Shown: positions 7,294-38,599 of the stretch, one piece after another
How the letters are laid out: every line of letters begins with the position of its first letter
Numbering within the stretch: position 1 is the stretch's first letter
Assembly (NCBI GenBank): GCA_964475005.1
Contig: CAYYUZ010000001.1
Coordinates: forward strand, 19,780-83,779
From: an uncultured Spirochaetales bacterium
GTDB lineage: Bacteria; Spirochaetota; Spirochaetia; JABEVK01
DNA length: 64,000 bases
Direction of reading: 5' to 3'
The notes under the pieces: generated by a model
Seen by the model: the letters and a program-made list of their open reading frames with translations, nothing else
What the model was told of the DNA's origin: nothing
Databases searched by the model: none
Position numbers and translations under genes: made by a program

Positions 7294-7333
7294 CAAATCG
7301 GTGTCTGCGGGCATCCGATCAAAGGAGGTTTCC

Positions 7334-8277: not shown

Positions 8278-8303
8278 GGAGTGAAACGACCTGGAGAATC
8301 CGG

Positions 8304-11435: not shown

Positions 11436-11483
11436 CTTTGGTATCCTATCACCCGAAGGCGGTCCGAGGCCTGAGTTCGGTCC

Positions 11484-12008: not shown

Positions 12009-12048
12009 GCGAACCTCCACGCATTGTTGATTCTGGGCTACGAGCAGA

Positions 12049-13308: not shown

Positions 13309-13316
13309 GGGGACTC

Positions 13317-13437
13317 CTGAAAAAGGTGAGGAATTCTCACACGGAGATCGTCGAAGGTTCACAGGGGGCGTTGCGGGGGTTACCCCCGCTCGGGGGGTGG
13401 GGCGGTACCAAGTACCGCCCCAGGGGGGTCGCCCCCC
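13317..13437 (-). terminator. cluster of GC-rich hairpins downstream of the 13447..14496 gene (terminator-like)
   Basis: ggggcggtac-caa-gtaccgcccc (13399-13421, 10-bp stem), gggggttaccccc (13375-13387), ggggggtcgcccccc (13423-13437), and gtgag-gaatt-ctcac (13326-13340) followed on the minus strand by CTTTTT. Confidence 0.5.
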
Positions 13438-13446
13438 TCCGAATTG

Positions 13447-14496
13447 TTAGGACTTGCTCTTTGCTTTCAATGTCGCGAACCAGGGGCTGGTGAGGTCGTC
13501 GCTCTGTCCCCAACCGGGGATAATGTCGGCCAGGCCGAGCACGTTGACCGGCTTGCCAGCCTTGTCCAGGTCGACCTTCTTGATGAGGTTGGCCTTGAAC
13601 TCGTAGCTGTCAGGGGTCGTTTCCCCAGCGATCTTCTTGGCAACGACGCGCAGGTTGATCTTGCCGATGAGTTTGGGGTCAACCGCGGCCGTCAGAAGCC
13701 AGGGGCTGTCTTTCTCTTGGATGAGCTGAAGGTCTTGGTTCGAAACGTCGATGGAGTAGACCTTGATCTCGGTGCGACCGTTTTCCTTGAGCGCCTTGTA
13801 GGCGCCCTGGGTAAAGGCGTCCCAGCTGCCCCAGATGGCGTCGATCTGGCCCTTGGGGTACTTGGCCAAAATGGCGCTGACCTTGTTGGCCGTGTCGCCG
13901 GGAACGTCGGAGCTGACGGCGCCGATGCTGGCCAGTTCCTTGATACCGGGGTTGTCGGCCAAGACCTTCTTGTAGACGGTCTGGCGGCGTTCCATCGGGG
14001 GGAACCCGGCTACCCAAAGTTTGACGATGTTGGCTTTGCCTTTGAAGTCGGCGACCAGGGCTCCCAGCGATTGTTCAGCCAGCGATTCGTCGGCCTGGCT
14101 GGTGACGGTCGCTCCGGCGATCTTACCGTTGACGGCGGTGTCGAACGCCGAAACCGCGATGCCGGCCGCGGTGATCTTCTTGACCAGTTCGGTGGAGTAA
14201 GGGTCGCGCCCTTGGCTGAGGATGATCCCATCATACTTCTGGGTAATAGCCTGGTTCACAAAGTCTTGGAACTTGGCGTCATCACCATTGGTCAGGAAGA
14301 CATCGACTTGGAAGCCCAGGGCCTTGCCCTCCTCTTTGACTCCCCCGACGAACTGCGTGGTGTTGTCATCGGACCCCAGGTTGCGGATGACAGCGACCTT
14401 CACAGGTCCTTTGTGCTTGGCAATTTTGTCGGGAACGGATTGAGCGAAGGTGGTCGCGGCGACGATCACCAGAAGGACGGAAAAGAAGCGTTTCAT
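13447..14496 (-). CDS. ABC transporter periplasmic substrate-binding protein (sugar/RbsB-LsrB-like PBP family), orphan
   Basis: Signal peptide MKRFFSVLLVIVAATTFAQS, type-I PBP fold. No adjacent permease or ATPase. GGAGG RBS before ATG 14496. Confidence 0.65.
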   Translation of the reverse strand: MKRFFSVLLVIVAATTFAQSVPDKIAKHKGPVKVAVIRNLGSDDNTTQFVGGVKEEGKALGFQVDVFLTNGDDAKFQDFVNQAITQKYDGIILSQGRDPYSTELVKKITAAGIAVSAFDTAVNGKIAGATVTSQADESLAEQSLGALVADFKGKANIVKLWVAGFPPMERRQTVYKKVLADNPGIKELASIGAVSSDVPGDTANKVSAILAKYPKGQIDAIWGSWDAFTQGAYKALKENGRTEIKVYSIDVSNQDLQLIQEKDSPWLLTAAVDPKLIGKINLRVVAKKIAGETTPDSYEFKANLIKKVDLDKAGKPVNVLGLADIIPGWGQSDDLTSPWFATLKAKSKS

Positions 14497-14622
14497 GGAA
14501 ACCTCCACGGGTGTGAAAACTTTACTCTACTGAGTTGATCGAGTTATATAACATGAAAAATATCATGTCAAGTTGAATAGTCGTGAATTGACAAGAGCCC
14601 TCAAAAGAGCGATCATGTCACC

Positions 14623-15072
14623 ATGAGTAACGTGGTGTTTCACCGAGCCCTAACGGGACAGCGTTGGGACGGCGTGGAGGTACTGGCCTACAAAGAGGCC
14701 GGGACGACCTTCCAGTCCGTGACTAGGCAAGTCCTGTTCGAGGGCGATCCGGCCCTTTGTGTCCAACTCAGATACTTCGAGGTGGGACCCGGCGGTCACA
14801 CGACGCTCGAACGCCACCAGCATGTTCATTTGGTATGGATAAGCCGTGGAAGAGGGAGGGTCTACGTGGGCGGAGAATTCTTCGAGCTTGCCAAGGGAGA
14901 TGTGCTTTCCATTCCAACGCTGACCTGGCATCAATTTCGGGCACCGCTGAATTCCCCCCTAGGGTTTCACTGTCTGGTGGCAGCCGACCGTGACAAACCC
15001 TCGCTACCCAGCGATCAGGACTGGCGGGAGTTGACACAGAGCCGGGAGGCTGCCGCCTTTCTAAGGAGATGA
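14623..15072 (+). CDS. cupin-domain protein
   Basis: Cupin motif region (GGHTTLERHQHVHLVWISRGRGRVYVGGE) with two His-containing beta-barrel motifs. Confidence 0.6.
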   Translation: MSNVVFHRALTGQRWDGVEVLAYKEAGTTFQSVTRQVLFEGDPALCVQLRYFEVGPGGHTTLERHQHVHLVWISRGRGRVYVGGEFFELAKGDVLSIPTLTWHQFRAPLNSPLGFHCLVAADRDKPSLPSDQDWRELTQSREAAAFLRR

Positions 15073-15074
15073 CC

Positions 15075-15254
15075 ATGTTACCCCCCGTGACGGTTTCGGT
15101 TCGGATTCCCGGGGCGCTCTGGCGCCGGTGGATTCGCGTCGAGCCCAAAGTCGGCATTGACCTGCAGTCGCTGATTCCCGCCCTGCTCGAGCTCTATCTG
15201 GACCGGGAAGAGCGAAGCCGCGATGGACTGACCGGTATCGAGTATCAAATATGA
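15075..15254 (+). CDS. small hypothetical protein (59 aa)
   Basis: AAGGAG RBS 7 nt upstream of ATG 15075. Start overlaps the cupin stop; conserved operon position immediately before metY. Confidence 0.35.
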   Translation: MLPPVTVSVRIPGALWRRWIRVEPKVGIDLQSLIPALLELYLDREERSRDGLTGIEYQI

Positions 15255-15264
15255 GGAGTCGTTC

Positions 15265-16563
15265 TTGAGCGAGCCCAAGAATTTCGGTTTTGAGACGAGA
15301 ATGGTCCATGCCGGGCACGTTCCCGACACCCAGCACGGATCGAGGGCGGTTCCGATTCACCAGACCTCGTCGTTTGTTTTTTTTGACGCCGACCACGCCG
15401 CCGAGCTGTTTGACCTCAAGCAGTATGGGCACATCTACAGCCGGATCAGCAACCCGACGGTTGCCGTGCTCGAAGAACGAGCCGCCAGCCTGGAAGGGGC
15501 TACCGGCGCCGTGGCGTTCGCCAGCGGCATGGCGGCGCAACTCGGGGCGTTCCTGACGTTGTTGGAAGCCGGGGATGAAGTTGTCGCCTCCAGTCATCTT
15601 TACGGCGGTACGACCACGCAGTTCACCTACACGTTGAAGCGAACCGGCAACCCGGTGACTTTCGTCGACCCGAACGACCTCGATGCCTGGGAGAAGGCGA
15701 TCACGCCGAAAACCAAAGCCCTCTACGGCGAGACGATCGGCAACCCCCAAGGATCCATTCTCGACTTGGAACGTTTGGCAGCGCTGGCCGCCTCGAAGCG
15801 AATTCCTCTCATCATTGACAACACCCTGGCCACCCCTTGGCTCTGTCGACCCATGGATTGGGGAGCCACCTTGGTCACCCATTCGGCGACGAAGTTTTTG
15901 GGGGGGCATGGGAATTCCTTGGGGGGTCTGCTTTTGGACTCCGGCAAGTTCGATTTCGGCCGCTTCCCGAGCATCGCCGAAGCCTCGCCGCAGTACCACA
16001 ACCTGAAGTTCTTCGACACCTTTGGCCATTACGGCTTCCTGATGAAAGCCCGAGCCGCCACCCTGCGCGATACCGGGGCCGCGCTTTCCCCGACCAACGC
16101 GTTCCTTTTGATTCAAGGCTTGGAAACCCTTTCGCTGAGGATGGAGCGCCATGTTTCCAATGCTCAAGCCGTGGCCCGGTTCCTTGAGGGCCACTCTCGG
16201 GTCGACTGGGTGGCCTATGCCGGTCTGCCCAGTCATCCGCACCATGAACGCGCCAAAAAGTACCTTCCCAAAGGCCCGGGCGCCGTACTGAGTTTCGGAA
16301 TCAAACCGCGCCCTGGGCAAACGGCCCGAGAAGCGGGCAAGGAGTTTATCGGCAGGCTGCAGCTGTTCAGCCACCTGGCCAACATTGGCGACGTGCGCAG
16401 CCTGGTGATTCACCCGGCCTCGACCACCCACGCTCAGCTGAGCGATGAAGAGCTGCGGGCCTCGGGCGTTGGCCCCGAACTCATCCGGCTTTCGGTCGGT
16501 ATCGAAACCTTGGAGGATATCTTATGGGATCTGGACCGGGCCTTTCTTGCGCCATCAACCTGA
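15265..16563 (+). CDS. metY: O-acetylhomoserine sulfhydrylase (aminocarboxypropyltransferase), Cys/Met-metabolism PLP family
   Basis: 432 aa MetY-length protein. PLP-lysine motif SATKFLGGHG, VHAGH..., NPT... blocks. Paralog 1 of 3. Confidence 0.85.
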   Translation: MSEPKNFGFETRMVHAGHVPDTQHGSRAVPIHQTSSFVFFDADHAAELFDLKQYGHIYSRISNPTVAVLEERAASLEGATGAVAFASGMAAQLGAFLTLLEAGDEVVASSHLYGGTTTQFTYTLKRTGNPVTFVDPNDLDAWEKAITPKTKALYGETIGNPQGSILDLERLAALAASKRIPLIIDNTLATPWLCRPMDWGATLVTHSATKFLGGHGNSLGGLLLDSGKFDFGRFPSIAEASPQYHNLKFFDTFGHYGFLMKARAATLRDTGAALSPTNAFLLIQGLETLSLRMERHVSNAQAVARFLEGHSRVDWVAYAGLPSHPHHERAKKYLPKGPGAVLSFGIKPRPGQTAREAGKEFIGRLQLFSHLANIGDVRSLVIHPASTTHAQLSDEELRASGVGPELIRLSVGIETLEDILWDLDRAFLAPST

Positions 16564-17063
16564 ACACCAAACTGACCGCTGAACAAAAGCAGCTCTACCA
16601 GGACCCCGAGGCGATCCGAACGATTTTGAACACCTACCGGCGAATTGCCATTGTTGGCCTGTCCACCGACCGGCAGAAGGCGAGTTACTTCGTGGCCTCG
16701 TACCTGAAAGCCGCAGGCTGGGAAGTGGTCCCCGTCAACCCCAAGGCCGACGAGATCCTAGGCTTGAAGGCCTACCCCGATTTGAAATCCATCCCGGGGA
16801 AGGTGGATCTTGTGGACATCTTCCGGCCTGCCGCCGACGTCGGGCCCCTGGTCGAGGACGCCATCGCCATTGGAGCCAAGGCCGTCTGGCAGCAGTTGAG
16901 GATCATCAATCTCGAGGCTGCACAAGCCGCTCGAATGGCCGGGTTGCTGAGCGTCGTCGACCTTTGCCTGAAGATGGAACACGGTCGCTACGGCGGAGGT
17001 TTGCACGAAGCGGGAATGAATACAGAGCTCGTGACGGCCCGCCGGGAACATCGTTTTCTGTAG
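16524..17063 (+). CDS. CoA-binding domain protein (YccU/YneT-like)
   Basis: IAIVGLS...GWEVVPVNPK CoA-binding Rossmann motif. GGAGGA RBS 6 nt before ATG 16524, overlapping metY end by 40 nt. Confidence 0.7.
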   Translation: MGSGPGLSCAINLNTKLTAEQKQLYQDPEAIRTILNTYRRIAIVGLSTDRQKASYFVASYLKAAGWEVVPVNPKADEILGLKAYPDLKSIPGKVDLVDIFRPAADVGPLVEDAIAIGAKAVWQQLRIINLEAAQAARMAGLLSVVDLCLKMEHGRYGGGLHEAGMNTELVTARREHRFL

Positions 17064-17101
17064 TCCTTGTCTCACGGGCGGTTTGACGTTACAGTTCTTG
17101 T

Positions 17102-17533
17102 GTGAAGCTTTCCACAAGATCCCTCTACGGCCTGCGCCTTTTGTACCAAGTGGCTCGAAACTACGACAATGGCCCACTCCAACTCAAGGAAGTGGCGACA
17201 CGCGAATCGATTTCCGAAAAGTACTTGGGGCAGATCGTCCTGTTGTTGCGTTCTTCGGGAATCCTGGTGTCGGTTCGTGGGAATCAGGGCGGCTATCTTT
17301 TAGCACGCAAACCCTCCAGCATCACCGTTCTCCAGGTGGTCGAGGTTCTTGAGGGAGATTTCCTGGAGAGGCTCGATGACGATTCTCCCATCACCGATCC
17401 CAGCCAGGCCGCGACGCGAGAGGTCTGGCGGCGGCTCGGCCGTTCGGTCCGCGACGTGCTCGGCGCGATCACCCTCGAGGACCTTCTGAGCCTCCCCCAA
17501 AACGACGCCAGTTTTCTCGACTTCGCTATCTAG
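17102..17533 (+). CDS. Rrf2-family transcriptional regulator (IscR/CymR-like)
   Basis: N-terminal MKLSTRSLYGLRLL...LKEVA...ISEKYLGQIV wHTH typical of Rrf2. No C-terminal 3-Cys cluster is evident (CymR-like, not IscR-like). Confidence 0.8.
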   Translation: MKLSTRSLYGLRLLYQVARNYDNGPLQLKEVATRESISEKYLGQIVLLLRSSGILVSVRGNQGGYLLARKPSSITVLQVVEVLEGDFLERLDDDSPITDPSQAATREVWRRLGRSVRDVLGAITLEDLLSLPQNDASFLDFAI

Positions 17534-17566
17534 AACGCCCTCGATCTTTCACTTGATCCCAAGAGA

Positions 17567-17730
17567 AGAAGAGAGACCGGATAACCGGAAGTCAATTCAA
17601 ATTGACCGGATCAGAAGAGTCGAGGCAAGAGCCAGAAATTCAAGCAGAACTTCTCAACGCTTCGCCGTCTGACTTGACCACCTTTCTCGAAATCCGGTTG
17701 ATCCGGCCCATCCTGTTATCCGGTCTCTTC
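17567..17730. repeat. MITE-like inverted-repeat element, copy A (about 165 bp)
   Basis: Left end GAGAGACCGGATAACCGGA (17571-17589) and right end GTTATCCGGTCTC (17715-17727) are reverse complements. Internal CCGGAT/ATCCGG hexamer repeats (TTGACCGGATCAGAAGAG ... ATCCGGTTGATCCGGCC). Second copy with identical ends at 30964-31120. Confidence 0.7.
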
Positions 17731-18606
17731 CTAAATCCGCGCTGCCGGGGAGGCCGAAATCCCCGTCTCCATGGCAACCAGCACGTCGGCCCATTTGGCG
17801 GCCCAGTCCCGAAGCTCCTTCGATTCCAGCGGCGCCGGAATTTTCGATTCCGTGTGACTGGCAATTTTGTTCGCCAGGTTGAAATACACTTGGGCCTGGG
17901 GAGATTCCGGGTAGGCCTCAATGGTCGTCTTGCCCTGCAGTTCGGCCTGGGTGACGGTGACCGATCTAGGAACGTACTCCACCACCTGGGTCTGGGTCTT
18001 TTGCACGAAGTCGTCGATAATGTCGCGCGGGTAGCCCGGCGCCATCGAGTTGGCAATGACGCCGCCCAACAGTGCGCCTCCGGACCGAGAGTATTTGTGG
18101 ATACCCTTGAACAGGTTGTTGGCGGCGTAGATGGCCATGAAATCGGCCGACGAGACTGTGAAGACGTGCTCAGCGATTCCTTCTCGGATAGGCACCGCGA
18201 AGCCTCCGCACACGACGTCACCAAGAACGTCGTAGATCACGACGTCGAGGTCGAGGTCCTCGAACACCTTCTGTTGTTTGAACAGCTGAACGCTGGTGAT
18301 GATTCCTCGTCCCGCGCAGCCCACACCAGGTGCCGGTCCGCCGGCCTCGACGCAGTACACGCCGCCGAAACCTTCGAAGATCACGGAGCGGGCTTTCAGG
18401 TGGGCGTTCTCCTGTAGGGAATCAAGAATGGTGGGAATGTAGTCGCCGCCGCGAAGGGTGTTTGTCGAGTCGGCCTTCGGGTCGCAGCCGAACTGCATGA
18501 CTTTGTAGCCGAGTTTGGCCAGCGCGGCGCTGAGGTTGCTCGTCGTCGTGGACTTGCCGATGCCGCCCTTTCCGTAGATGGCGATTTGCTGAATTTTCTT
18601 AGACAC
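17731..18606 (-). CDS. nitrogenase-like reductase Fe protein, NifH/BchL/CfbC/MarH family (MarH-like)
   Basis: Walker [15 protein letters not shown]. Both [4Fe-4S] ligand cysteines in canonical context ([19 protein letters not shown]; [14 protein letters not shown]). GGAG RBS 8 nt before GTG 18606; start overlaps the nifX-like stop by 8 nt (GTGTCTAA). Confidence 0.85.
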
Positions 18607-18973
18607 GGGGAGTACTCCTTGGGATAAATACGTTTCGATAAAGAGGCGAAGCAGCGACGCGGGCCAAGGCCGGAACGACGGGGTCTTCGGTGGAGAGAAA
18701 GGCGATTCCGCAGGCGGCCAGGCCTTGAACGACGGCCGGCCCCGCGGCGGCGGCCAGAACGAAGCGGCAATCGGAGAACCGTGCGAGGGCCGTTCCCAGA
18801 CCCTCGCCGTGACCTTCCTCGCCGCAGAGCGCGGGCACGGTTCGTTCGCCTTCCCACGCGAAACTTCGGCCATTCCAGAGATAGAGTTCAAACCGAGAGG
18901 CACGGCCGAAATGCCGATCGACGGTTTGGCCACCCTGGCTGGCGACGGCGGCTCGGATGAGGTTTTCAGCCAT
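18599..18973 (-). CDS. NifX/NafY/NifB-C-terminal-domain family protein (FeMo-cofactor-precursor-binding-like)
   Basis: [24 protein letters not shown] matches the Nitro_FeMo-Co domain start (AVAS..G..V..HFG....F.IY). ATG 18973 overlaps the nifB-like stop by 8 nt (ATGGCTGA). Confidence 0.75.
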
Positions 18974-19850
18974 GACTGAAGGTCTCCGCCACAGCCTCAC
19001 CGCCGTAAAGTTCCGCCGAAAGGTCAAGCTGCCCGGGAATGCCGCAGGCGTCGGCGCGGCAATGCCGGCAATGCCGGAACACCGCTAGGTGCTTTTCCGC
19101 GTCTCGGCGGGCGCGGTCGAGGGTCTCTTCGGTGGGAGGGTCCCACGCGGCGAAACGATGCTGAGGAATCAGGGGGATGATGTTAAAAAGCCCGGCTCCC
19201 TCAGCCGCCACCGTCCGGGCAGTCTCTTCCACGTGGTGATCGTTGATACCAGGAATCAGAACCAGATTCACCTTGATCGTGAGGCCGTGCGCGGCGGCTT
19301 CTCGAATGCCGGCTAGTTGCTGCCGAATCAGGACCTTGGCCCCCGCTTGTCCCTTCAAGACCTGGCCATGAAACCTCACACGGTCGACGATTTGGGCCAC
19401 GATGAGAGGGTCGACGCCGTTGACGGTCACGGTCAGTGTTCCCAGTCCCAACTGCAACAGCTCGTCAAGCCGCTCTTGCAGCAGGAGGCCGTTGGTGCTC
19501 AGGCACTTCACCAAATCAGGAAAGCAGGCCTGCACGGCGCGAAAGGTTTTCAGAGCGTGGGGCGTCGAAAGTGTGTCGCCGGGACCGGCGATGCCAACTA
19601 CAGAGATCTCGGGGCAGAGTTCCAAGGCCCGCGCAACAACTTCGGGGGCTTCTTCGGGTGTCACCAGGCGTCCGGTCACTCCGGGGCGGATCTCACTCTT
19701 GTTGAACTCGCGTCGGCAGAAGCCGCAACTAATGTTGCAGGAAGGGCTGACGGGGAGGTGGACCCTGCCACGGGTCAGGTGGGCCGCCGGGCTGAAACAG
19801 GGGTGGAGACGAGCCGGGGAAGAGGCCGAAAAAAGCGGTGGTGACTCCAT
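18966..19850 (-). CDS. NifB-like radical SAM protein (radical-SAM domain only; NifX domain is the separate downstream ORF)
   Basis: [32 protein letters not shown] matches the NifB signature HPCY..A....R.H.PVAP.CNI.C.YC.R, including the CxxxCxxC radical-SAM cluster. AAGGAGG RBS before ATG 19850. Confidence 0.85.
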
Positions 19851-19964
19851 GTTGCCTCCTTGACTACCGAAAAACTAGCATTTGCAATATTTTATGTCAA
19901 TCAACATAGTTAACATTAATAGACTAAATAACTAGCGTTTAAGTAGTATTACTAGGAGGACGTC
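19851..19964. promoter_or_regulatory. AT-rich divergent control region (nifB-like operon <-> metY paralog 2) with palindrome TAGTATTACTA
   Basis: 114-bp AT-rich gap. Perfect 11-bp palindrome at 19943-19953. TTGCAATATTTTATGTCAATCAAC contains -35-like TTGCAA/TGTCAA words. A related AGTAATACT palindrome lies in the nifD-like/metY3 gap. Confidence 0.45.
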
Positions 19965-21275
19965 ATGTCTGTACCCAAGCTCCAGTTTGATACCCTGAAA
20001 GTCAGGGCCGGCTACGACCCCAAAGATCACCAGAACGCGATCGCCGTTCCCATCTACCAGACCGCCTCGTTTGACCTCGGGGATACCGCCCGCGTCGACC
20101 GGTTACTGTCGTTTCAGGAGGCCGGCTGGCTGTACACCCGGATCGGCAATCCTACTGTCGATGTTTTGGAGCGTCGGGTCGCCGCCCTCGATGGCGGCGC
20201 CGCGGCCATCGCGGTCGCCTCGGGCATGGCAGCCATCTCGTACACTTTACTGAATCTGGCCGAAGGGGGAGGAAGGATCTTGACCACCCCTAGGCTCTAT
20301 GGAGGCACCTTTGACGCCTTCCAGAAGGTCCTCGCGCCGCTGGGTATTGGAGTCGATCTCGTCGAAGACTCCGACAAACCCGAATCGTTCCGCAAGGCGC
20401 TCAAGTCAAATACCAAAGCCATCTTGATCGAGTCGATCTCTAACCCCAACGCCACCGTGCTCGACATCGAGGCCATTGCCAAGGTGGCCCACGACTTCGG
20501 CATTCCCCTGGTGGTCGACAATACCTTCGCGACGCCCTATTTGTTCGACGCGTTTGGCCACGGCGCCGACCTTGTTGTTTATTCGGCGACGAAGGCCCTC
20601 AACGGCCACGGCAACACCATCGGTGGCGTGATCGTCGAAAGTGGGAAGTTCAACTATGCCAACGGAAAGTTCCCGCAATTCCAGAAGCCCACCTACCTGC
20701 TTCGCGACCGACCGACCAACGTCGAGCGCAGCTTTCTCGAGGCCTTTCCGGACTTTCCCCTCACGGTGCGCATCCGTCTGAACTATCTGGCCTACCTCGG
20801 TGCTGCGCTTAGTCCTTTCGATGCCTTTCTGATCCTTCAAGGCATCGAGACGCTTTCCGAGAGGGTGGGCAAGCAGGTGGCGAACGCCGAGAGAGTGATC
20901 AAGTTCCTGGAAACTCACCCGCAGGTCGCCTGGGTGAAGCATCCGGCGGCCAAGGGCAATCCCTACGCGGAACTTGCCAAGAAGTACCTTCCCCAAGGTG
21001 CAGGGGGCATCTTCACGTTTGGATTCCGGGGAAGCGACGCTCAGTACAACAAGTTCATCGATTCGCTCAAGGTCTTCAGTTTCCACGCCAATGTCGGGGA
21101 TGCCCGCTCGCTGGTCATCAATTCCCCCAAGACCACGCACGGCGAGCTTCGCCCCGCCGAACAACTGACCGCCGATATCCCGCCGGAAACGATTCGGCTG
21201 TCGATTGGTATCGAGGACCCCCGCGACCTGATCGCCGACCTGCGCCAGGCGTTCAAGGCGGCGCTGAAGGCCTGA
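19965..21275 (+). CDS. metY: O-acetylhomoserine sulfhydrylase-family PLP enzyme (paralog 2)
   Basis: 436 aa; PLP-lysine motif SATKALNGHG; MetY-family blocks throughout. Sits between and opposite to the two nitrogenase-like operons. Confidence 0.8.
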   Translation: MSVPKLQFDTLKVRAGYDPKDHQNAIAVPIYQTASFDLGDTARVDRLLSFQEAGWLYTRIGNPTVDVLERRVAALDGGAAAIAVASGMAAISYTLLNLAEGGGRILTTPRLYGGTFDAFQKVLAPLGIGVDLVEDSDKPESFRKALKSNTKAILIESISNPNATVLDIEAIAKVAHDFGIPLVVDNTFATPYLFDAFGHGADLVVYSATKALNGHGNTIGGVIVESGKFNYANGKFPQFQKPTYLLRDRPTNVERSFLEAFPDFPLTVRIRLNYLAYLGAALSPFDAFLILQGIETLSERVGKQVANAERVIKFLETHPQVAWVKHPAAKGNPYAELAKKYLPQGAGGIFTFGFRGSDAQYNKFIDSLKVFSFHANVGDARSLVINSPKTTHGELRPAEQLTADIPPETIRLSIGIEDPRDLIADLRQAFKAALKA

Positions 21276-21337
21276 GCCGGCGAGCGAAGCGATGCCCGTG
21301 TCGTTCTAGGCGAAGCCCAATCGGCGAGATCCGAGCC

Positions 21338-22651
21338 TTAGTTAAATTGTTGCAGCACCCAGGTATAGATGTCTTCCAGCAGTTTCAGCCCGCCATGGTA
21401 GCCGGCGTAGGTGCCGTGGAGGACCAGCCTTTCCTTCATGGGCACCGACACCGCCAGAAAGTTGCCCTCCAACTCTTGTGCGAGTTTCTTTTCAAAAATG
21501 CTCCCGAGAATCAAGGGTGGGCCGAACCAGTCGGTGTCGCGGATGGCCTGGTGAATGAGATGGCCGTCTGTCGAAAAGACGACCGGAGCCTCGATCCCGT
21601 ACTGAAACTCCTTGAAATAGCCGACGATGCGGTTCCGATGCTCCTCGGGAGTGGCGTCGGTGATGTACTGGGTTTCGGGAACGAGTCCGAAATCGTTGAC
21701 CAAGAACTTGCTGTAGGCCAATGCGTCCGCGGCGTTTGTGACGGTCGAGAAACGGCGGCTCATGGTCCGGTTTTCGAGGAACACGTCGCTGGTCCTCTCG
21801 ATGTGAAAGTAGTATTCCTTTTCGTGGCGGTCGATGACGCGCTCGACGAGTGTCGGTTCGAGCTCGGCAAATTTCCCTACCGTCCTGAGGAAGCGGCTCG
21901 TCTCGAAGGCTCCTACCGGCAAGTTCGGAAGGTGCAGGTAGGGCGTTCCAAAGGCTTCCTCGAGATGAAGAACGTTGCCAAGTCCCACCCAAGGTGAAAC
22001 GAGCAAGTTGAACTCGGCGTTTGGCACACGGTTGAGATTCTCAATGCCACGGTACTCGCCGAAAATCGCGTTGGGGATAAGGCCAACCTCTTCGAGCAAG
22101 GACTCCAGCACGCGGAAGTTGCCGACCCAGAACGGATCGTAGGACGGGATCGGTCCCCAAACGTTGACCAATCCCTTGACCAGCGGTCCCTTGCCGCGGG
22201 GAACCAGATACTGGTCGATCAGCGCATCGACCACCCACTGGTGGCCTTCGAGGTTGTTAGCCTTGAAGCCAGGGGTTTCCACAGCCACGACAGGTTTTCC
22301 CGCGTTCTGAAATTCTTGCACGACCTTTTTGATATCGTCTCCCACAATTTCGGTGGTGCAGCCCGATAGCACCACGTAGAGGTCTCCGTCGACGACCTTG
22401 AGCGCGTTGGAAATGGTTTCGCGCAGCCGGCCTTCTCCGCCGAATACGGTTTCTCGCTCACCGACATTGGTGCAGGGGTAGATCTGCGGGGACAGGTAGC
22501 CGGAGTCGCCGTTGCTTCCCGCAATGCCCCCCGCGAGCTTGGCCGCGCACCCCGGCCCGGCGTGAAGCACGGGAACTCCGCGGTAGAGACCTTGCACGGT
22601 CTGCATGGCGCCCAAGGCGCAGACGTAACGAGGTTGGTCGAGGATCTTCAT
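21338..22651 (-). CDS. nitrogenase-like reductase component-1 beta-type subunit, NifK/NifN/MarK-like
   Basis: Nitrogenase component-1-type oxidoreductase fold. P-cluster-type cysteine contexts (YVCALGA; AGPGCAAK; VVLSGCTTEIVGDDI = CxxxxIGDD motif). ATGA start/stop overlap with the upstream D-like gene. Confidence 0.8.
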   Translation of the reverse strand: MKILDQPRYVCALGAMQTVQGLYRGVPVLHAGPGCAAKLAGGIAGSNGDSGYLSPQIYPCTNVGERETVFGGEGRLRETISNALKVVDGDLYVVLSGCTTEIVGDDIKKVVQEFQNAGKPVVAVETPGFKANNLEGHQWVVDALIDQYLVPRGKGPLVKGLVNVWGPIPSYDPFWVGNFRVLESLLEEVGLIPNAIFGEYRGIENLNRVPNAEFNLLVSPWVGLGNVLHLEEAFGTPYLHLPNLPVGAFETSRFLRTVGKFAELEPTLVERVIDRHEKEYYFHIERTSDVFLENRTMSRRFSTVTNAADALAYSKFLVNDFGLVPETQYITDATPEEHRNRIVGYFKEFQYGIEAPVVFSTDGHLIHQAIRDTDWFGPPLILGSIFEKKLAQELEGNFLAVSVPMKERLVLHGTYAGYHGGLKLLEDIYTWVLQQFN

Positions 22652-24120
22652 GCGGGTTCTCCGGCTTCAAGAAAGTTGTGGTGGGGCTGGGCAAACCACC
22701 AGCCGGTGTAGGGCAGTTTTACGCGGCTGGCGAGGTTCTTGGTGAAACTGCGGTTGGTCACGACGTCGTGGACGGCTGACGCGAACTTGACCAAGCCGTG
22801 GTAGCCGAAGATGGCGTATTCGTCAAAGACGCACAGTGAAGGGATGCCGAGCTTGGTCGCCCAGACCGTCGAGCCGGTGTGGCGGCTAAAGAAGATGTCG
22901 GGCTTCACTGTGTTGAGGATGTTGAGCAGTTCGAAGTTTTGCAGGTCGTTGACCGACAGGGGAAAGTCGTTGGGGGAGTGATCGAGCAGGTACTGGAAGG
23001 ATTCCGGCCTGCGGCCGTCTTCGTACTGCTTGTCGAAGTGCCAAGCGGCTGAGTGAACGATTTCGAGGCCCAGTTCCTGCAATACTCTTGTCGTGTTGAA
23101 GTTGAAGCCTGGGCCCATGCCGACAACGGCGCGTAGACCAGTAAGCTTGGCCCGGAATGCTTCGATCTTGGGCTGCCAGGTCTCCTTTTCCTTTTTCAAG
23201 TACGCGTCGGCGATGTCATCCTTGCCCAAAACCTTGGCCAAGCCCCGGACCCAACTTTCGAAACCCGCCATGCCGTGGGGTTGGAGCGACTTGATGTAGG
23301 GCACCCCGTACTGTTCTTCCAGTCCATGGCCCAGATAGGTTCCCAACGTGGCGCAAGTGCTGACCGTGGCGACCGACTCAGACAATTGGGACAACTGTTC
23401 AATGGTAGTGTTCGACAAGAGGAACAAAGGTTCGACCCCGAAAAGAGCGAACAACGCGGTGATCTCCTTGCGGGCGCTGCCAAAGAAGTTGATCACGTTG
23501 ACGACGTCGCGCTTGACCTTTGGGGGCTGAACGATGGTGCTCAGAATGGCGTGAAAGGCCGCGTCAAAGCCGCTGGCCCAGATCTGCGTCTTGAACCCCT
23601 CGCAAAAGACGGGAGCGACGGGTATCCCCAGTTCCTCCGAGGTCTCGCGGGCGATGCTGGCGAGGTCCTCGCCGATGACGCCACTAACGCACGAGGCGCC
23701 GATGAAGATGGCGCGCGGGTCATAGCGCCTGTGGGTTTCTCTCACCACGTCGCGAAGGTTCTCGGTGGCCCCAAACACGGTGTCGGCCTCGTTCATGTCG
23801 GTGCTCACGTACCCCGAGCGGGAGTTGTCGAGGCCCAATTTCGCGGCCAACTGATCTTTGGAGTTGCTGAGGCTCATGGCGGTCACCGCGCAGCCAGAGG
23901 GGGAGTGGTGGACCACGGCAGCGTCGGTCACAAAGCCCAGCTGACCGAGAGCGCAGGCGGCGTTGCACAGGCTTGCCTGGCTGAAGCATCGCTTGCGGTC
24001 GCCGAAGCCCCCGCCACCGCAAGCCTGACCGAGCCCTTGAAGCGTTCCCTCGTAGCCCGTAATCGAGCCGAGGCGGTTTTCTCGGGTTCCCGTCTCTGTT
24101 CCTTTGCCGTAATCACTCAT
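22648..24120 (-). CDS. nitrogenase-like reductase component-1 alpha-type subunit, NifD/NifE/MarD-like
   Basis: FIGASCVSGVIGEDL (CxxxxIG[DE]D P-cluster motif), FCEGF, and a Cys in the cofactor-ligand region (VSTCATLGTY). AAGGAG RBS 7 nt before ATG 24120. Confidence 0.8.
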   Translation of the reverse strand: MSDYGKGTETGTRENRLGSITGYEGTLQGLGQACGGGGFGDRKRCFSQASLCNAACALGQLGFVTDAAVVHHSPSGCAVTAMSLSNSKDQLAAKLGLDNSRSGYVSTDMNEADTVFGATENLRDVVRETHRRYDPRAIFIGASCVSGVIGEDLASIARETSEELGIPVAPVFCEGFKTQIWASGFDAAFHAILSTIVQPPKVKRDVVNVINFFGSARKEITALFALFGVEPLFLLSNTTIEQLSQLSESVATVSTCATLGTYLGHGLEEQYGVPYIKSLQPHGMAGFESWVRGLAKVLGKDDIADAYLKKEKETWQPKIEAFRAKLTGLRAVVGMGPGFNFNTTRVLQELGLEIVHSAAWHFDKQYEDGRRPESFQYLLDHSPNDFPLSVNDLQNFELLNILNTVKPDIFFSRHTGSTVWATKLGIPSLCVFDEYAIFGYHGLVKFASAVHDVVTNRSFTKNLASRVKLPYTGWWFAQPHHNFLEAGEPA

Positions 24121-24289
24121 CGTGATCTCCTTGTAGGGGTACTTTAGCGAGGTTAACTTTGGTTAGTCAAGTAATACTACTAACATAATAGTGAAAGATT
24201 TTCAAAAACATAACTGAGTCTATTGACAAACATAAACAAACACTACTATCACTAGTCTGTAACTAGTGTTTATGATCAAGGAGTGAGTG
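24121..24289. promoter_or_regulatory. AT-rich divergent control region (nifD/K-like operon <-> metY paralog 3 operon) with palindrome AGTAATACT
   Basis: 169-bp AT-rich gap. AGTAATACTACT at 24169-24180 (odd palindrome AGTA-A-TACT). GTCAAGTAATAC word shared with 5561. Twin ACTAGT palindromes at 24251-24272. Confidence 0.45.
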
Positions 24290-25594
24290 ATGAGCGAGAG
24301 GAAGTTGGCCTTCGATACCCTTCAGGTCCACGCCGGGCAGGTTCCTGACCCGACGACGGGGGCCCGGGCTGTCCCCATCTATCAGACGACCTCGTTCGTC
24401 TACAAGAACTTCGACCACGCCATCGCGCTCAGTACCGTGGCCGAGTTCGGTTTCACCTACACGCGGGTCGTCAATCCCACGGCCGATGTCTTGGAACAGC
24501 GGATCGCGGCCCTGGAAGGCGGCTCCGGCGCTTTGGCGTTGGCCTCCGGTTCGGCGGCAACCACCTACGCCATCCTCAATCTTGCCGGTACCGGCGACCA
24601 CATCGTTTCCGCGCAGACCCTCTACGGCGGCACCTACAACCTGTTCGCCAACACTCTCCCCCGCTACGGGATTACGACCACCTTCGTCGATCCCGACGAA
24701 CCTGAGAATTTTCGGAAGGCCATCCGCATCAACACCAAGGCGGTGTTCATCGAGTCCATCGGCAACCCCGGAATCAACATCATCGACATCGAAAAGGTCG
24801 CCAAGATCGCCCACGAAAACGGTGTCCCTCTCATCGTCGACAACACCTTCGGCACGCCGTACCTGATCCGGCCGTTTGAATACGGTGCCGACGTCATTGT
24901 CCACTCGGCCACTAAGTACATCGGCGGCCACGGAACCACCATTGGAGGCCTTCTGGTCGAAGGGGGAAAATTCGACTGGTCCAAGAGCGGCAAATTCCCC
25001 GGTTTCACCGAAGTGGACAAGAGTTACGGCTTCAGCCACTGGGAGCGCTTCGGCAACTACAACGGCGCGAACATCGCGTTCATCATCAAGGCCCGTTTGC
25101 AACTGCTGCGCGACATCGGCGCGGCGCTGTCCCCTCAGAACGCCTTCCTCCTCCTCCAAGGGCTGGAAAGCTTGTCGCTTCGGGTTCAAAAGCATGTTTC
25201 CAATGCTCAGAAGATCGCCGAGCACCTGGCCAAACATCCGCAGGTCGAGTGGATCGATTACCCTGGGCTGCCAACCAACAAGTACCACGCCGTCGCCAAG
25301 AAGTACTTTCCCCGGGGCGTGGGAGCTATCTTCGCCTTCGGGATTAAGGGCGGGTTTCCCGCGGCCAAGAAATTCATCGAGAGCCTGACGATCTTCTCTT
25401 TTTTGGCCAACGTCGCCGATGCCAAGAGCCTTGTCGTTCATCCGGCTACCGTCACCCACGGTCAGCTCAACGAGCAGCAGCAACGCGAGGCGGGGGTCAA
25501 ACCCGAGCAGATCCGCCTGTCCATCGGTATCGAAGACGCCGAGGACCTGCTCTGGGACCTCGACCAGGCTTTTGAGAAGGCCAAGAAACTCTGA
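24290..25594 (+). CDS. metY: O-acetylhomoserine sulfhydrylase-family PLP enzyme (paralog 3)
   Basis: PLP-lysine motif [19 protein letters not shown] 8 nt before ATG 24290; the listed start at 24287 is a GTG. First gene of a long rightward operon. Confidence 0.85.
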
Positions 25595-25665: not shown

Positions 25666-26634
25666 ATGACTAAGAAGATTCTTTCGGTCGTTTGTTCCGT
25701 TCTCGTGGCTTCGGGTGCCTTCGGGCAGAGCACCGAGAAATTCCAGGTAGCCTGGGGCGGAGGAGCTTGCGAGGCTCCTGTGCTGGCGGCCTACTACAAC
25801 GGCTTTTTCAAGCAGGAAGGGCTTGACGTCGAACTGGTCAAAGTTCCCGATTTTGAGTCGGAGAAGACCGCGCTGGCCTCGAACAAGATCAGCGGTGCCG
25901 TCGGCAACTTTGGCTGGTTCAAGGCCATTGAACAGGGCTTCGCCGTCAAGCTGACCGGCGGTATCCACGCGGGTTGTATCAAGTTTGTCACTCCCCAGGG
26001 TTCGGCCATCAAGACCTTGGCCGACGTGAAGGGCAAGACCATCGGTATTGACGCCATTGGTTCGGGCCCCCAGATTGACCTTTCGATCGCCTTGCGAAAC
26101 GCTGGAATCAACCCCAAGACGGAAGTCTCCTGGAGGGCCTATCCTCCCACCGAGCTTTCTGCCGCCGTCAAGAAGAAGGAAATCGACGCGTTCATCGTCT
26201 GGGATCCGTTTGCCGCTTTCGCCGTGCAGGATGAGAAGTACAACACCCTTCTCGACATCGCCAAGGACGAACCTTTCAAGAGCGGCTATTGCTGCTTCGT
26301 CGTTGTCAGCGCGCTCTTGGTGAAGAACGACCCGAAGAAGGCCGCCGCCTACACCAAGGCCATCCTCCGTGGTGCCAAGTGGGTGGGTGAGAACCCCGAC
26401 AAGGCCGCTGCTCTCGAGGTCGACAACAAGTTTGTCCCCGGTGAGAAGCAGCAGATTGCCGACCTGTTGGCCAGCTACTACTGGAGGCCGTCGGTGTCTC
26501 ACGCCAAGGATGTCGCCAAGTACTTCATCACCGAACAGAAGAAGGACGGAATTTTGGAAGCGACGACCAACGAGGCCAAGCTCCTCGACCGCCTGTTTGC
26601 CACCGTCGTCACCGACGCCGAAGTCAATCTCTAG
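25666..26634 (+). CDS. ABC transporter substrate-binding protein, NMT1/NitT/TauT family
   Basis: Signal peptide MTKKILSVVCSVLVASGAFG; NMT1-like PBP. Confidence 0.75.
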   Translation: MTKKILSVVCSVLVASGAFGQSTEKFQVAWGGGACEAPVLAAYYNGFFKQEGLDVELVKVPDFESEKTALASNKISGAVGNFGWFKAIEQGFAVKLTGGIHAGCIKFVTPQGSAIKTLADVKGKTIGIDAIGSGPQIDLSIALRNAGINPKTEVSWRAYPPTELSAAVKKKEIDAFIVWDPFAAFAVQDEKYNTLLDIAKDEPFKSGYCCFVVVSALLVKNDPKKAAAYTKAILRGAKWVGENPDKAAALEVDNKFVPGEKQQIADLLASYYWRPSVSHAKDVAKYFITEQKKDGILEATTNEAKLLDRLFATVVTDAEVNL

Positions 26635-26697: not shown

Positions 26698-27663
26698 ATG
26701 TCGGTCTCTCCGCGATTCAAAGTGCATCCTTTCTTTTGGGGTCCCCCCGTGGCCCTGCTCCTCGACCAAGTTCTGCATTTCTTTCCCGAAGACAACCTGC
26801 AACCGGCTCCGGAAACCGGAGTCTACTCGTTTTTGCTTTGGGTTCTTTTCGGGGCTTACGCGCTCTTTTTGACCGCGTCGGTCTTTCACCAGAGGATCAG
26901 AACGAAACTCCACCACTACACGCCCTTGCTGACGGCCTTTTTTTTGTTTTTTGGTCTCTGGGACACCGTGACGCTCAAGTACGCTCTGATCCCACTACCC
27001 TATTTTCCTGGCCCGGACCGGGTCTTGAGCGTGTTCGTCAACGATGGTGACATCTTTGGTCTTGGCATCTACCACTCTCTGGTTTTGCTGTTCACCGGCT
27101 ACGCGGTCGGCGGCGTTCTTGGCCTGATCACAGGGATTTCGATTGGTTGGAGCCGCCGCCTCTCGTACTGGATCAATCCCGTGTTCAAGTTTGTCGGTCC
27201 TATCCCGGCCACGGCTTGGATTCCAATCGCGATGATCACGTTTCCAACAAGCTTTTCGGCCGGAGTCTTTCTGATCGCCCTGTCGGTCTGGTTTCCCGTA
27301 ACCTTCATGACGAGTTCGGGCATCGCCGGCGTGAAAAACTCCTATTTTGAGGTGGCACGAACCCTCGGCGCCGACAACCGGTTCCTGATCTTCAAAGTCG
27401 CCGTTCCGGCGGCCTTTCCCCTGATCTTCATCGGGTTGTTTATGGGTTTGGGGCTGTCGTTCCTGACGCTCATTGCAGCCGAAACCTTGGGTGTTAAGGG
27501 TGGGCTTGGGTACCTGATTCTCTGGGCGCAAGGCTGGGGTGAGTACTACAAAGTCTACGCCGTGTTGATCACCATCGCTGTGCTGTTCTCGTCGCTCATT
27601 CTGATCTTGTTCAAAATCAAGGACCGTATCCTTATCTGGCAGAAAGGACTCATCAAATGGTAA
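26698..27663 (+). CDS. ABC transporter permease (NitT/TauT family)
   Basis: BPD_transp_1 permease core with extra N-terminal TM segment(s). Confidence 0.75.
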   Translation: MSVSPRFKVHPFFWGPPVALLLDQVLHFFPEDNLQPAPETGVYSFLLWVLFGAYALFLTASVFHQRIRTKLHHYTPLLTAFFLFFGLWDTVTLKYALIPLPYFPGPDRVLSVFVNDGDIFGLGIYHSLVLLFTGYAVGGVLGLITGISIGWSRRLSYWINPVFKFVGPIPATAWIPIAMITFPTSFSAGVFLIALSVWFPVTFMTSSGIAGVKNSYFEVARTLGADNRFLIFKVAVPAAFPLIFIGLFMGLGLSFLTLIAAETLGVKGGLGYLILWAQGWGEYYKVYAVLITIAVLFSSLILILFKIKDRILIWQKGLIKW

Positions 27664-28454
27664 TCCCAGCCGCCGCCTCGGGCCGGATCGAGGTCAAGGC
27701 TGTCAGCCGAACGTTCATCAACCATGAAGGCGACCGAATCCACGCCCTCGACAAGGTCGACCTGACGGTAGAGAGCGGAGAATTTCTTTCCCTTTTGGGA
27801 CCTTCCGGCTGCGGCAAATCGACCCTGCTGAGGCTTGTCGCCGGCCTGGATACCGCCTACGAAGGCTCGATCGCTGTCGACGGTGTTCCCGTTACCAAGC
27901 CTGGAGCGGAACGCGGTCTGGTGTTTCAAGACCCGAACCTGTTCCCTTGGCTCAGCGTCCGCAGGAACATTCAGCTGGGACTCGAGGCGCGTCAGGTTCT
28001 CAAGGAGAAGAAGGACGAGGTCGACGACTACATTCAACTCGTGGGGCTGAAGGGGTTTGAGAAGACCTTTCCCCACCAGCTCTCCGGCGGAATGGCCCAG
28101 CGGGCGGCCATCGCCAGGGCTCTGATCAACCACCCCAAAGTGCTTCTGCTCGACGAACCGTTGGGTGCCCTCGACGCCTTCACCCGCATGGCCATGCAAG
28201 ACGAGATTCTCCGAATTTGGACGGAGCGTCGCACCACAGCAGTTCTGGTGACCCACGACATCGACGAGGCCATTTACATGAGCGACCGCATCGTTATTCT
28301 TTCGCCTCGGCCTGGCCGGATTCAGAAGGTACTCACCATCGATCTGCCCCGGCCCCGCCGCCGCAACGATCCCGAGTTCCTGAAGATCCGTTCCGGCATT
28401 CTGGAGACCCTGCATTTTGCCGAAGAGGAGCCCATCCTTGCCTACAACCTTTGA
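27657..28454 (+). CDS. ABC transporter ATP-binding protein (NitT/TauT family)
   Basis: Walker A GPSGCGKST, signature LSGGMAQR, Walker B LLLDEP. Confidence 0.85.
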   Translation: MVIPAAASGRIEVKAVSRTFINHEGDRIHALDKVDLTVESGEFLSLLGPSGCGKSTLLRLVAGLDTAYEGSIAVDGVPVTKPGAERGLVFQDPNLFPWLSVRRNIQLGLEARQVLKEKKDEVDDYIQLVGLKGFEKTFPHQLSGGMAQRAAIARALINHPKVLLLDEPLGALDAFTRMAMQDEILRIWTERRTTAVLVTHDIDEAIYMSDRIVILSPRPGRIQKVLTIDLPRPRRRNDPEFLKIRSGILETLHFAEEEPILAYNL

Positions 28455-30963: not shown

Positions 30964-31120
30964 GGACGAGAGACCGGATAACCGGAGGGAAACCCAGATG
31001 AACCGGATCAGAGAGGGAAAAGGCAGTGACCATCGGGATTGTTCTGTCTTTCTCTCAACCGAATTCTCTGGCGCCCCAACATCCGGTTGATCCGGCCTTC
31101 ACGGTTATCCGGTCTCCTTT
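30964..31120. repeat. MITE-like inverted-repeat element, copy B (about 157 bp)
   Basis: GAGAGACCGGATAACCGGA at 30968-30986 and CGGTTATCCGGTCTC at 31102-31116. Internal GAACCGGATCAGAGAGG and ATCCGGTTGATCCGGCC shared with copy A; central about 70 bp diverged. Fills the convergent gap between the CGL and lipoprotein stops. Confidence 0.7.
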
Positions 31121-38498: not shown

Positions 38499-38599
38499 CC
38501 GGCGTTGTTGTCGGGCGCGGCCGCTCTGATCCGCCCGCCCACCAGGGGTTCTGGTGTTCTAAAGACTACTAAAACCATGTTTTCAATAGGAGATAACTC

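Follow-up and report, generated by a model that had tools for sequence, protein, structure and literature searches.

A 64,000-nt stretch of DNA from an uncultured Spirochaetales bacterium (GenBank assembly GCA_964475005.1, contig CAYYUZ010000001.1, positions 19,780 to 83,779), here called the window and used for all positions below, contains five genes, designated B, X, H, D, and K, for a nitrogenase-like enzyme system set among genes of sulfur metabolism. These genes probably encode a complete three-component nitrogenase-like (NFL) reductase of Group IV that would use ATP to drive C-S bond cleavage for sulfur scavenging, with a D2K2 catalytic component from an uncharacterized clade. As judged from their sequences, the D and K proteins are paralogs of MarD and MarK, the catalytic subunits of methylthio-alkane reductase (MAR), in a separate Group IV clade, and not Mar orthologs. 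The five genes, and the sulfhydrylase gene that lies among them, are the following.

17731-18606, minus strand: H, a NifH/MarH-type Fe protein of 291 amino acids with a GTG start (PF00142, 1.8e-98)
18599-18973, minus strand: X, a stand-alone NifX/NafY-domain protein of 124 amino acids (PF02579, 6e-11)
18966-19850, minus strand: B, a NifB/MarB-type radical-SAM cofactor maturase of 294 amino acids without a NifX domain (PF04055)
19965-21275, plus strand: metY1, a divergent O-acetylhomoserine sulfhydrylase paralog (PF01053, 3e-115) that separates the B-X-H operon from the D-K operon
21338-22651, minus strand: the K-like catalytic subunit, 437 amino acids (PF00148, 2.5e-60)
22648-24120, minus strand: the D-like catalytic subunit, 490 amino acids (PF00148, 5.3e-74)

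The original prediction, made from the DNA letters without database searches, had named a NifH-family ATPase with both cluster cysteines, a NifB-type radical-SAM protein with an HPC motif, a stand-alone NifX/NafY open reading frame (ORF), D-like and K-like subunits with cluster motifs, tight gene overlaps, and a metY gene on the opposite strand between the two operons, and all of this was borne out. B matched the nifB model TIGR01290 at 2.5e-74 and 250 bits, with only profile positions 10 to 278, the radical-SAM part, being aligned, and both the HPC motif and a second, 15-letter motif were found in it. X aligned with the C-terminal NifX portion of the same model, and also with TIGR02663, and is a putative carrier of the cluster made by NifB-type proteins. 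In H, the Walker A motif and both [4Fe-4S] cysteines (C95 and C131) are conserved. A mechanically generated ORF list gave a 400-amino-acid ORF at 17731-18933 for this gene; the true start is at 18606, with AAGGAG found 8 to 13 nt ahead of the GTG. The D and K motifs SGCTTEIVGDDI and ASCVSGVIGEDL, as well as STCATLG, were all found. Read directly from the sequence, the B stop and X start overlap by 8 nt (ATGGCTGA), the X stop and H start likewise by 8 nt (GTGTCTAA), and the D stop and K start as ATGA. The predicted absence of nifE and nifN from the window was upheld, as tblastn found no further D/K, NifEN-like, H, or B copies in the 64 kb, and no nifV, nifA, or PII (glnB-type) gene was present among the annotated window ORFs. 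Outside the window, nif or mar genes may be present in the genome of the organism as well.

The closest proteins of solved structure are those of the MarBHDK system from Rhodospirillum rubrum (Group IV-C; 9FMG and 9D9U), 9FMG being the R. rubrum methylthio-alkane reductase MarDK2H2 (PMC12552129). Direct comparison with the R. rubrum locus gave 76% amino acid sequence identity for H, 57% for B, 41% for K, and 35% for D. The best PDB match of D was MarD (9D9U_A/9FMG_A, 5e-96; next, 5e-38), that of K was MarK (9D9U_C, 2e-102; next, 1e-15), and that of H was MarH (9FMG_D, 1.3e-147; next, 2e-83). A fold search with D as modeled by AlphaFold (pLDDT 85.8, pTM 0.87) again gave 9FMG_A as the best match, with TM scores of 0.88/0.92 and a root mean square deviation of 2.4 Å, and nitrogenase alpha chains scored a TM of ∼0.67. 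D does not have the ∼14-residue-longer N terminus seen in MarD.

Ligand positions of MAR were taken from published work (PMC13474568 and PMC12552129) and mapped onto the window and family sequences. All six P-cluster cysteines are kept, with C52, C77, and C144 of D corresponding to MarD C66, C91, and C158, and C11, C35, and C98 of K corresponding to MarK C32, C56, and C121. Around the cofactor, D C256 is the equivalent of MarD Cys270, R413-H414 is the equivalent of Arg428-His429 of Loop I, and W181 is the equivalent of the essential Trp195; F185 (MarD Phe199) and H361 (MarD His375) are conserved too. In the family as a whole, C52, C77, C144, C256, R413-H414, W181, and H361 are invariant among 88 D sequences, and C11, C35, and C98 are invariant among 75 K sequences. 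The position of MarK Cys52 is occupied by Ala31 in window K and by Ala or Ser across the family. The Cys/His motifs common to B and MarB are all kept in window B, and the HPC (H16/C18), CX3CX2C (C38/C42/C45), C116, and HCxxC (H260/C261/C264) elements are each found in at least 45 of 46 family B proteins. With all ligands and all B motifs kept, the MAR cofactor machinery is fully represented in this locus.

Profile scores against NCBIfam and Pfam, with equivalog cutoffs serving as membership thresholds, gave D/K bit scores far below the cutoffs for nifD (134.5 versus 653.55), nifE (154 versus 505), nifK (57.6 versus 427), BchB (81.9 versus 490), and CfbD (42 versus 268). The two placements that the original prediction had named as counting against it, one inside the Mo, V, or Fe nitrogenases and the other with DPOR/COR or CfbCD, were thus not obtained; for the former, the scores lay far below the NifD/K/E/N and the Vnf/Anf cutoffs alike. 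The pattern found is that of a Group IV NFL, namely, an ATPase of the NifH family that has the Walker A motif and two [4Fe-4S] cysteines, together with a PF00148 pair that fails the Nif, Vnf, Anf, NifEN, Bch, and Chl models. None of ten representatives of the other clusters among the top 150 reached a Nif cutoff in NCBIfam, which indicates that the nearest sequence space is one of NFL paralogs, not nitrogenases. H itself marginally passes the NCBIfam nifH cutoff (398.5 versus 394.35 bits), so that automated annotation would label it a nitrogenase iron protein even though its D-K partners are not nitrogenase.

The window D family is discrete, with 87 other sequences at least 48% identical to window D, one representative at 44.5%, and the rest at no more than 39%. 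The closest homologs (66 to 75% identity) are from Geobacter and Desulfuromonadales metagenome-assembled genomes (MAGs), Geotalea toluenoxydans (71%, the source of the nearest named homolog), and a Polyangiaceae MAG, and those at 50 to 57% are from Clostridia, Bacteroidales, Treponema and other spirochetes, and Negativicutes. No MarD homolog among the best 120 listed falls below 74% identity to the R. rubrum protein, and these 120 span Alphaproteobacteria, heliobacteria, Negativicutes, and Clostridia (Pelosinus, Clostridium, and Thermoanaerobacterium, for example); window D is 33 to 37% identical to the Mar-clade sequences tested. A neighbor-joining tree was built from 59 sequences and 481 columns with simple distances, 100 bootstraps, and K subunits as the outgroup, and without R. 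palustris Mar2/NflDK3, R. rubrum NflDK, Isr, Endomicrobium proavitum Nfa, or the IV-C set of North et al. 2020. In that tree, the window clade and the Mar clade were separate, each with a bootstrap value of 100, Mar joined its sister P0251 at 100, and the window clade joined the clade of Mar and an Nfa-like anchor, to the exclusion of other NFL paralogs, at 91. P0251 is 54% identical to MarD, and a search for its homologs found Succinivibrio, Clostridium, and Ruminococcus sequences and returned no Alphaproteobacteria. The Nfa-like anchor consists of P0245 and P0396, chosen by cysteine fingerprint; both carry the exact E. proavitum NfaD fingerprint (C50, 53, 60, 78, 81, 146, and 257), and only these two reached at least six of the seven positions among the proteins compared at that stage. 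Both are 36% identical to window D, and the tree places them with Mar and not with the window. On this comparison, Mar and the Nfa-like anchor together appear to form the sister group of the window clade. The original prediction had offered a Mar-like enzyme or a new subgroup of sulfur-salvage homologs; the new subgroup stands, as a Group IV lineage with MAR-type ligands, a NifB-type maturase, and a sulfur island around it, and Mar orthology falls away with the D/K identities of 35% and 41%, the separate neighbor-joining clade, and the occurrence of both types on one contig described below.

The genome scan for window D homologs returned only matches of at least 50% identity, and the 80 loci obtained in this way were surveyed by similarity to the window's own proteins, truncated contigs included. 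Window-type D occurs in at least 80 species genomes of Desulfuromonadales, Clostridia, Bacteroidales, spirochetes, and Negativicutes, the carriers of the clade as a whole, which range from Clostridia to Desulfuromonadales, being anaerobes of the gut, the rumen, termites, and sediments. A pyridoxal phosphate (PLP) enzyme of Cys/Met metabolism lies within 6 kb of D-K in 51 of the 80 loci, and in 33 a metY- or cysK-type gene abuts D-K on the same strand. H was found in 53 loci, B in 44, a stand-alone NifX in 36 (usually between B and H), and ABC transporter genes in 51. Loci bearing NifX most often read B-X-H-(cysK)-D-K, and B-X-H is the commonest arrangement among the Firmicutes loci. Clostridial layouts include (CGL)-cysK-B-X-H-cysK'-D-K and B-X-D-K-H-cysK'-D-K, CGL denoting a cystathionine gamma-lyase-type gene, two Geobacter/Desulfuromonadales loci read metY-D-K-metY, and two further loci read (metY)-H-B-D-K. 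Genes resembling metY1 (51 to 68% identity) abut D-K in nine loci and follow K by ∼440 nt in another. Eight Firmicutes loci with window-type DK have an importer similar to that of the window (ATPase 55 to 61%, permease 40 to 46%), and Rrf2 genes lie near window-type DK in seven loci. In MAGs labeled Bacteroidales and Paludibacteraceae (L015, 9869-14145, and L016, 10001-15919), two to three tandem window-type D genes (50 to 56%) are followed by a single K and metY. The H partners of window-type DK are of two kinds, one MarH-like (70 to 78% identical to window H and R. rubrum MarH) and the other at ∼46 to 50%. A MarH-type H is found with many window-type DK pairs, and a resemblance of H to MarH therefore does not point to Mar function.

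One metagenome contig (L087; ENA ERZ24911383 NODE_196, 5324-20481) holds three distinct D-K pairs. The order is a window-type DK (54%/53% identical to the window's), Rrf2, a MarH-type H, MarDK (80%/79% identical to R. rubrum), cysK, a third DK, and a second cysK. There is a single Fe protein gene and there are two cysK genes within the 21.5-kb stretch, which suggests that one Fe protein serves several catalytic components. As the window-type DK adjoins canonical MarDK here, a nonredundant role for it can be argued. Within 10 kb of R. rubrum marD, no second DK was found.

The original prediction had also described the layout of the window locus as atypical and had counted a NifB split into radical-SAM and NifX parts as a departure from Mar, and neither point survived comparison with relatives. 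The stand-alone NifX recurs in the 36 loci mentioned above, and R. rubrum MarB itself has no NifX domain, so the separation of the two parts is no difference from Mar. The R. rubrum Mar locus and the window share the components H, D, and K and a NifB-type B that has no NifX domain, with cystathionine beta-synthase (CBS), CGL, and methionine transport genes close by. Unlike R. rubrum Mar, the window has two operons and a stand-alone NifX, and whereas R. rubrum Mar is under the LysR-type regulator SalR, the window locus is adjoined by an Rrf2 gene, and no LysR-type gene was seen adjoining it. A split arrangement is also known from Rhodopseudomonas palustris Mar2 (marKD2, RPA2347-48; marHB2, RPA2353-54; nflX, RPA2355), where D-K lies by metY/metC, NifX stands alone, and expression is induced by sulfate limitation (bioRxiv 10.64898/2026.08.20.746119). 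Mar2 is ∼65% identical to Mar1, and R. palustris NflDK3 is ∼52 to 56% identical (bioRxiv 10.64898/2026.08.20.746119). Mar2, compared here by its description, is reportedly confined to Rhodopseudomonas and at ∼65% identity falls inside the Mar lineage, unlike window D at 33 to 37%. The window layout differs from those of its relatives mainly by the inverted metY.

The genes around the reductase were confirmed as the sulfur genes that had been predicted, including three metY genes, CBS, CGL, ABC importers, and an Rrf2 regulator, and approximately the first 49 kb of the window (∼1-49 kb) is one sulfur-scavenging island. Its principal members besides the reductase genes are listed here, the CBS and CGL boundaries being taken from gene calls on an identical contig (L001).

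9015-11435: a cytoplasmic BisC-family molybdopterin S/N-oxide reductase (835.8 bits)
14623-15072, plus strand: a cupin (PF07883)
15265-16563, plus strand: metY3 (PF01053, 1.5e-126; TIGR01326, 584.6 bits)
16524-17063, plus strand: a CoA-binding protein (PF13380)
24287-25594, plus strand: metY2, an O-acetylhomoserine sulfhydrylase and the first gene of the downstream sulfur operon (TIGR01326, 625.9 bits, above the cutoff; PF01053, 9.4e-138)
25666-26634, plus strand: an SsuA/NMT1-family binding protein (PF09084/PF13379; SsuA_fam, 1.4e-26, below the cutoff)
26698-27663, plus strand: an ABC importer permease (PF00528)
27657-28454, plus strand: an ABC importer ATPase (PF00005)
28438-29823, plus strand: CBS, with PALP and CBS domains
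29820-30956, plus strand: CGL, a cystathionine gamma-lyase-type PLP enzyme (PF01053, 5e-143)
31474-32940: CysK (above the NCBIfam cutoff) with a putative redox domain, C_GCAxxG_C_C, fused at its C terminus
32998-34011, 34528-35640, and 48331-49425: three oxygen-dependent enzymes, a 2-oxoglutarate-Fe(II) oxygenase, a flavin monooxygenase, and a TauD-family dioxygenase
37003-39379: MetNIQ
39420-41207: a 595-amino-acid protein with four rhodanese domains, divergent from cysM

The three metY paralogs are mutually 40 to 50% identical, and metY1 scores 485.8 bits against TIGR01326, slightly below the cutoff of 495.1. Three more SsuA/NMT1-family binding proteins are encoded elsewhere in the window, and the island also holds cysM and a family-3 (SBP_bac_3) amino-acid-type ABC transporter. 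An identification of the binding protein at 25666-26634 as SaoX was rejected, with 42 bits versus a cutoff of 300 and a name that comes from an unrelated selenoprotein-associated system. In many clostridial loci, a gene placed between H and D matches the PALP domain of the cysK at 31474-32940. Residue 8 of the BisC-family protein aligns to model position 2, which leaves no room for a long N-terminal signal extension; by reducing dimethyl sulfoxide (DMSO) or methionine sulfoxide, the enzyme could supply the pathways of the island with thioethers. The oxygen-dependent enzymes stand beside an NFL that is expected to be oxygen labile. Organosulfur may be scavenged by this organism with and without oxygen. 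From ∼50000 to 64000, genes of a prophage or mobile-element type (RecT, Mu Gam-like, WYL/WCX, PD-(D/E)XK / REase-ARP nuclease, and DnaB-like helicase) abut the sulfur island, coinciding with a sharp rise in GC skew.

Candidate regulatory features are the following.

17102-17533, plus strand: an Rrf2-family, CymR-like regulator, convergent with H (PF02082, 6.9e-32)
19851-19964: the divergent promoter region of B-X-H and metY1, AT-rich
24121-24286: the divergent promoter region of D-K and metY2, AT-rich and with internal repeats

The Rrf2 protein has no cysteine, and its best NCBIfam model is CymR (1.2e-32, below the cutoff). Both promoter regions are markedly AT-rich against the 58 to 60% GC of the window and contain several TAGTA/TACTA palindromes, and a sigma-70-like TTGACT-18-TAAAGT is present on the minus strand at 24170-24141. 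The window has three exact copies of the word AACTAGYRTTT, two in 19851-19964 and one in 24121-24286; as a shared operator it is a weak lead, the chance estimate ignoring local AT richness. A repeat of ∼155 nt is present at 17573-17727, after the H stop and between the convergent Rrf2 and H genes, and at 30970-31116, after CGL. Its copies have conserved nested inverted-repeat ends (GAGACCGGATAACCGG ... CCGGTTATCCGGTCTC) and a variable center, and the element, which folds into a long hairpin (−69.4 kcal/mol, z −4.4), is REP/MITE-like or a bidirectional terminator.

By homology with MAR, B would build an [Fe8S9C] L-type cluster that X would carry and that would be inserted into D, with Cys256 and the loop of Arg413-His414 keeping it in place. 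A P-cluster would bridge D (C52, C77, and C144) and K (C11, C35, and C98), and H would deliver electrons with ATP hydrolysis. The C-S bond of an organosulfur compound would then be reductively cleaved, the substrate being either a thioether or thiol that enters by diffusion or a polar compound that the adjacent SsuA-type importer takes up. From the gene context, the methanethiol or sulfide set free would be fixed by metY1 and metY2 as methionine or homocysteine, and CBS and CGL would pass sulfur on to cysteine; in the clostridial relatives, a cysteine synthase would fix the released sulfur species instead. Expression would probably be turned on by sulfur limitation through the cysteine-less, CymR-like Rrf2 repressor. 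An analogous Mar route joins methanethiol with O-acetylhomoserine to give methionine and is controlled by sulfate limitation (bioRxiv 10.64898/2026.08.20.746119).

Several observations weigh against this assignment. Identity to MarD and MarK is no higher than 35% for D and 41% for K. Two positions near the cofactor differ, MarD Cys73 being replaced by Gly59 and His194 by Ile180, and MarD His450, on the loop that bears His442 in nitrogenase, is replaced by Tyr435. A Cys/Met gene within 6 kb is missing in 29 of the 80 loci, several of those contigs being truncated. The partner sulfhydrylase varies, being metY in Desulfuromonadales and Bacteroidales and cysK-like in Clostridia, which makes the released sulfur species ambiguous. 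The candidate operator word AACTAGYRTTT was not found in related genomes, and no Rfam family reached its gathering score in the window, which thus shows no riboswitch; a riboswitch scan of the related loci gave only a glycine riboswitch, in six Firmicutes loci. The D tree is a neighbor-joining tree of simple distances from which R. palustris Mar2/NflDK3 and R. rubrum NflDK were left out. Finally, it is homology and gene context that point to C-S cleavage.

The locus might instead encode a genuine methylthio-alkane reductase isozyme, acting on dimethyl sulfide (DMS), ethyl methyl sulfide, 2-methylthioethanol, or ethanedithiol, supplying methanethiol to MetY, and giving methane, ethane, or ethylene as by-products. 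We regard this as unlikely, although H, D, and K have no nearer relative of solved structure than MAR, all cluster ligands and the equivalent of the essential Trp195 are kept, metY flanks D-K as methanethiol capture would need, and the BisC-family S-oxide reductase 11 kb off could make DMS from DMSO. The first-shell differences, moreover, are only at Cys73, His194, and His450, and mutation of any of these had little effect in R. rubrum MAR (PMC13474568). However, the MAR cluster ligands are common to nearly all Group IV NFLs (PMC13474568) and so do not discriminate MAR from other clades; they tell how the enzyme is built, not what substrate it takes. D/K identities of 35%/41% compare with at least 74% among the 120 best MarD homologs listed, and even the diverged Mar2 is ∼65% identical to Mar1; the window clade is separate at 100 of 100 bootstraps, and in L087 its DK stands beside canonical MarDK. 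ABC importers, present in 51 of 80 loci and window-like in eight, also speak against an isozyme. Small volatile thioethers should cross membranes unaided, and an importer would thus not be needed for them. Both the abundance of importers and the occurrence next to canonical Mar suggest a substrate that differs from small volatile thioethers or is used in addition to them. It is conceivable, and we propose it tentatively, that window-type D/K form a functionally distinct and very widespread P-cluster/L-cluster clade with a non-Mar substrate, plausibly an imported nonvolatile organosulfur compound, whose sulfide or thiol would be handed directly to a dedicated CysK or MetY, working in the same cells as Mar and sharing its Fe protein. 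Another reading, in which a sulfonate or other polar organosulfur compound is imported and reduced with release of sulfite or sulfide, would parallel IsrBHDK of Rhodobacter capsulatus (Group IV-F), an NFL for anaerobic organosulfur assimilation that likewise has sulfonate-type ABC transporter genes close by. A binding protein of the SsuA/NMT1 family, a family of aliphatic-sulfonate transporters, lies directly downstream with three more in the window, eight Firmicutes loci have a similar transporter, and sulfide-capturing cysK-like genes abut D-K in Clostridia. We nevertheless consider it quite improbable: the binding-protein matches are below the family cutoff, too low to assign a ligand class, the Cys/His positions of P-cluster and cofactor are divergent in IsrD, for which a [4Fe-4S] cluster is predicted (PMC13474568), and IsrB is closest to BciD and has only the radical-SAM motif in common with NifB (PMC11423573). 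In comparison with the published description of Isr, the window retains all six P-cluster cysteines, the Cys and Arg-His ligands, and a NifB-type B scoring 250 bits on nifB, and thus does not belong with ISR.

An Nfa-type enzyme or a primitive nitrogenase reducing N2 or nitrogen oxides is extremely improbable. H does marginally pass as nifH at 398.5 versus 394.35 bits, NifB and NifX are present, and NfaBHDK of E. proavitum (Group IV-A) is like the window in its B/H/D/K set, its P-cluster cysteines, its Cys/His cofactor ligands, and the almost identical numbering of the NfaD/NfaK cysteines. Yet D/K score far under the NifD/K/E/N and Vnf/Anf cutoffs (134.5 versus 653.55 on nifD), Tyr replaces MarD His450 on the His442 loop, tblastn found no NifEN-type gene in the 64 kb, no nifV, nifA, or PII gene is among the annotated ORFs, and the context is one of sulfur throughout; the locus is not that of a bona fide Mo, V, or Fe nitrogenase. 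Nfa is nitrogen regulated, unlike this locus ringed by sulfur genes, and D falls outside the clade of P0245/P0396, the fingerprint anchor that represents Nfa here and has the extra cysteines of E. proavitum NfaD (C50, C60, and C81). Membership in the Nfa clade was therefore rejected by both the fingerprint and the tree despite the near-identical numbering. It is also very improbable that D-K is a NifEN-like scaffold or maturase for some other enzyme rather than a catalyst, as might be read from the separate D-K and B-X-H operons, from the place of NifE among the top NCBIfam matches of D (4.7e-45), and from the several DK paralogs often present in genomes with the window clade. D is far closer to catalytic MarD than to NifE in both sequence and fold, the Arg-His loop that buries the MAR cluster is invariant, and recurrent tight linkage to sulfhydrylase genes fits catalytic sulfur release.

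A C-S-cleaving Group IV reductase thus remains the reading that we favor, and loci of this kind have been noticed before. Dos Santos et al. 2012 (PMC3464626) reported Cys275-bearing nitrogenase-like genes beside O-acetylhomoserine sulfhydrylase or cysteine synthase genes in R. rubrum, Clostridium beijerinckii, and Geobacter sp. FRC-32; these are probably loci of the same kind as that of the window, and the paper noted the association with sulfur genes and gave no function, cofactor, or clade definition. The sulfur association itself is therefore not new, and the source organism here is uncultured. A 2026 review assigns roles to four of the six Group IV clades (Nfa, CfbCD, MAR, and ISR), counts the functions of the rest among the field's greatest challenges, and describes gene context only as "a tantalizing association" with sulfur metabolism (PMC13474568). 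The present finding is a good example of this recognized but uncharacterized class, and neither a new class nor a Mar ortholog. The window locus offers a clean and complete representative of an uncharacterized Group IV clade that has the full MAR-type cluster machinery and, in at least five bacterial phyla, is linked with genes for sulfhydrylases. Identification of its substrate would extend the known chemistry of the nitrogenase L-cluster. If the proposed function is correct, the clade would represent an unrecognized route of anaerobic sulfur assimilation in guts and sediments, with methane, ethylene, or H2 possibly given off.

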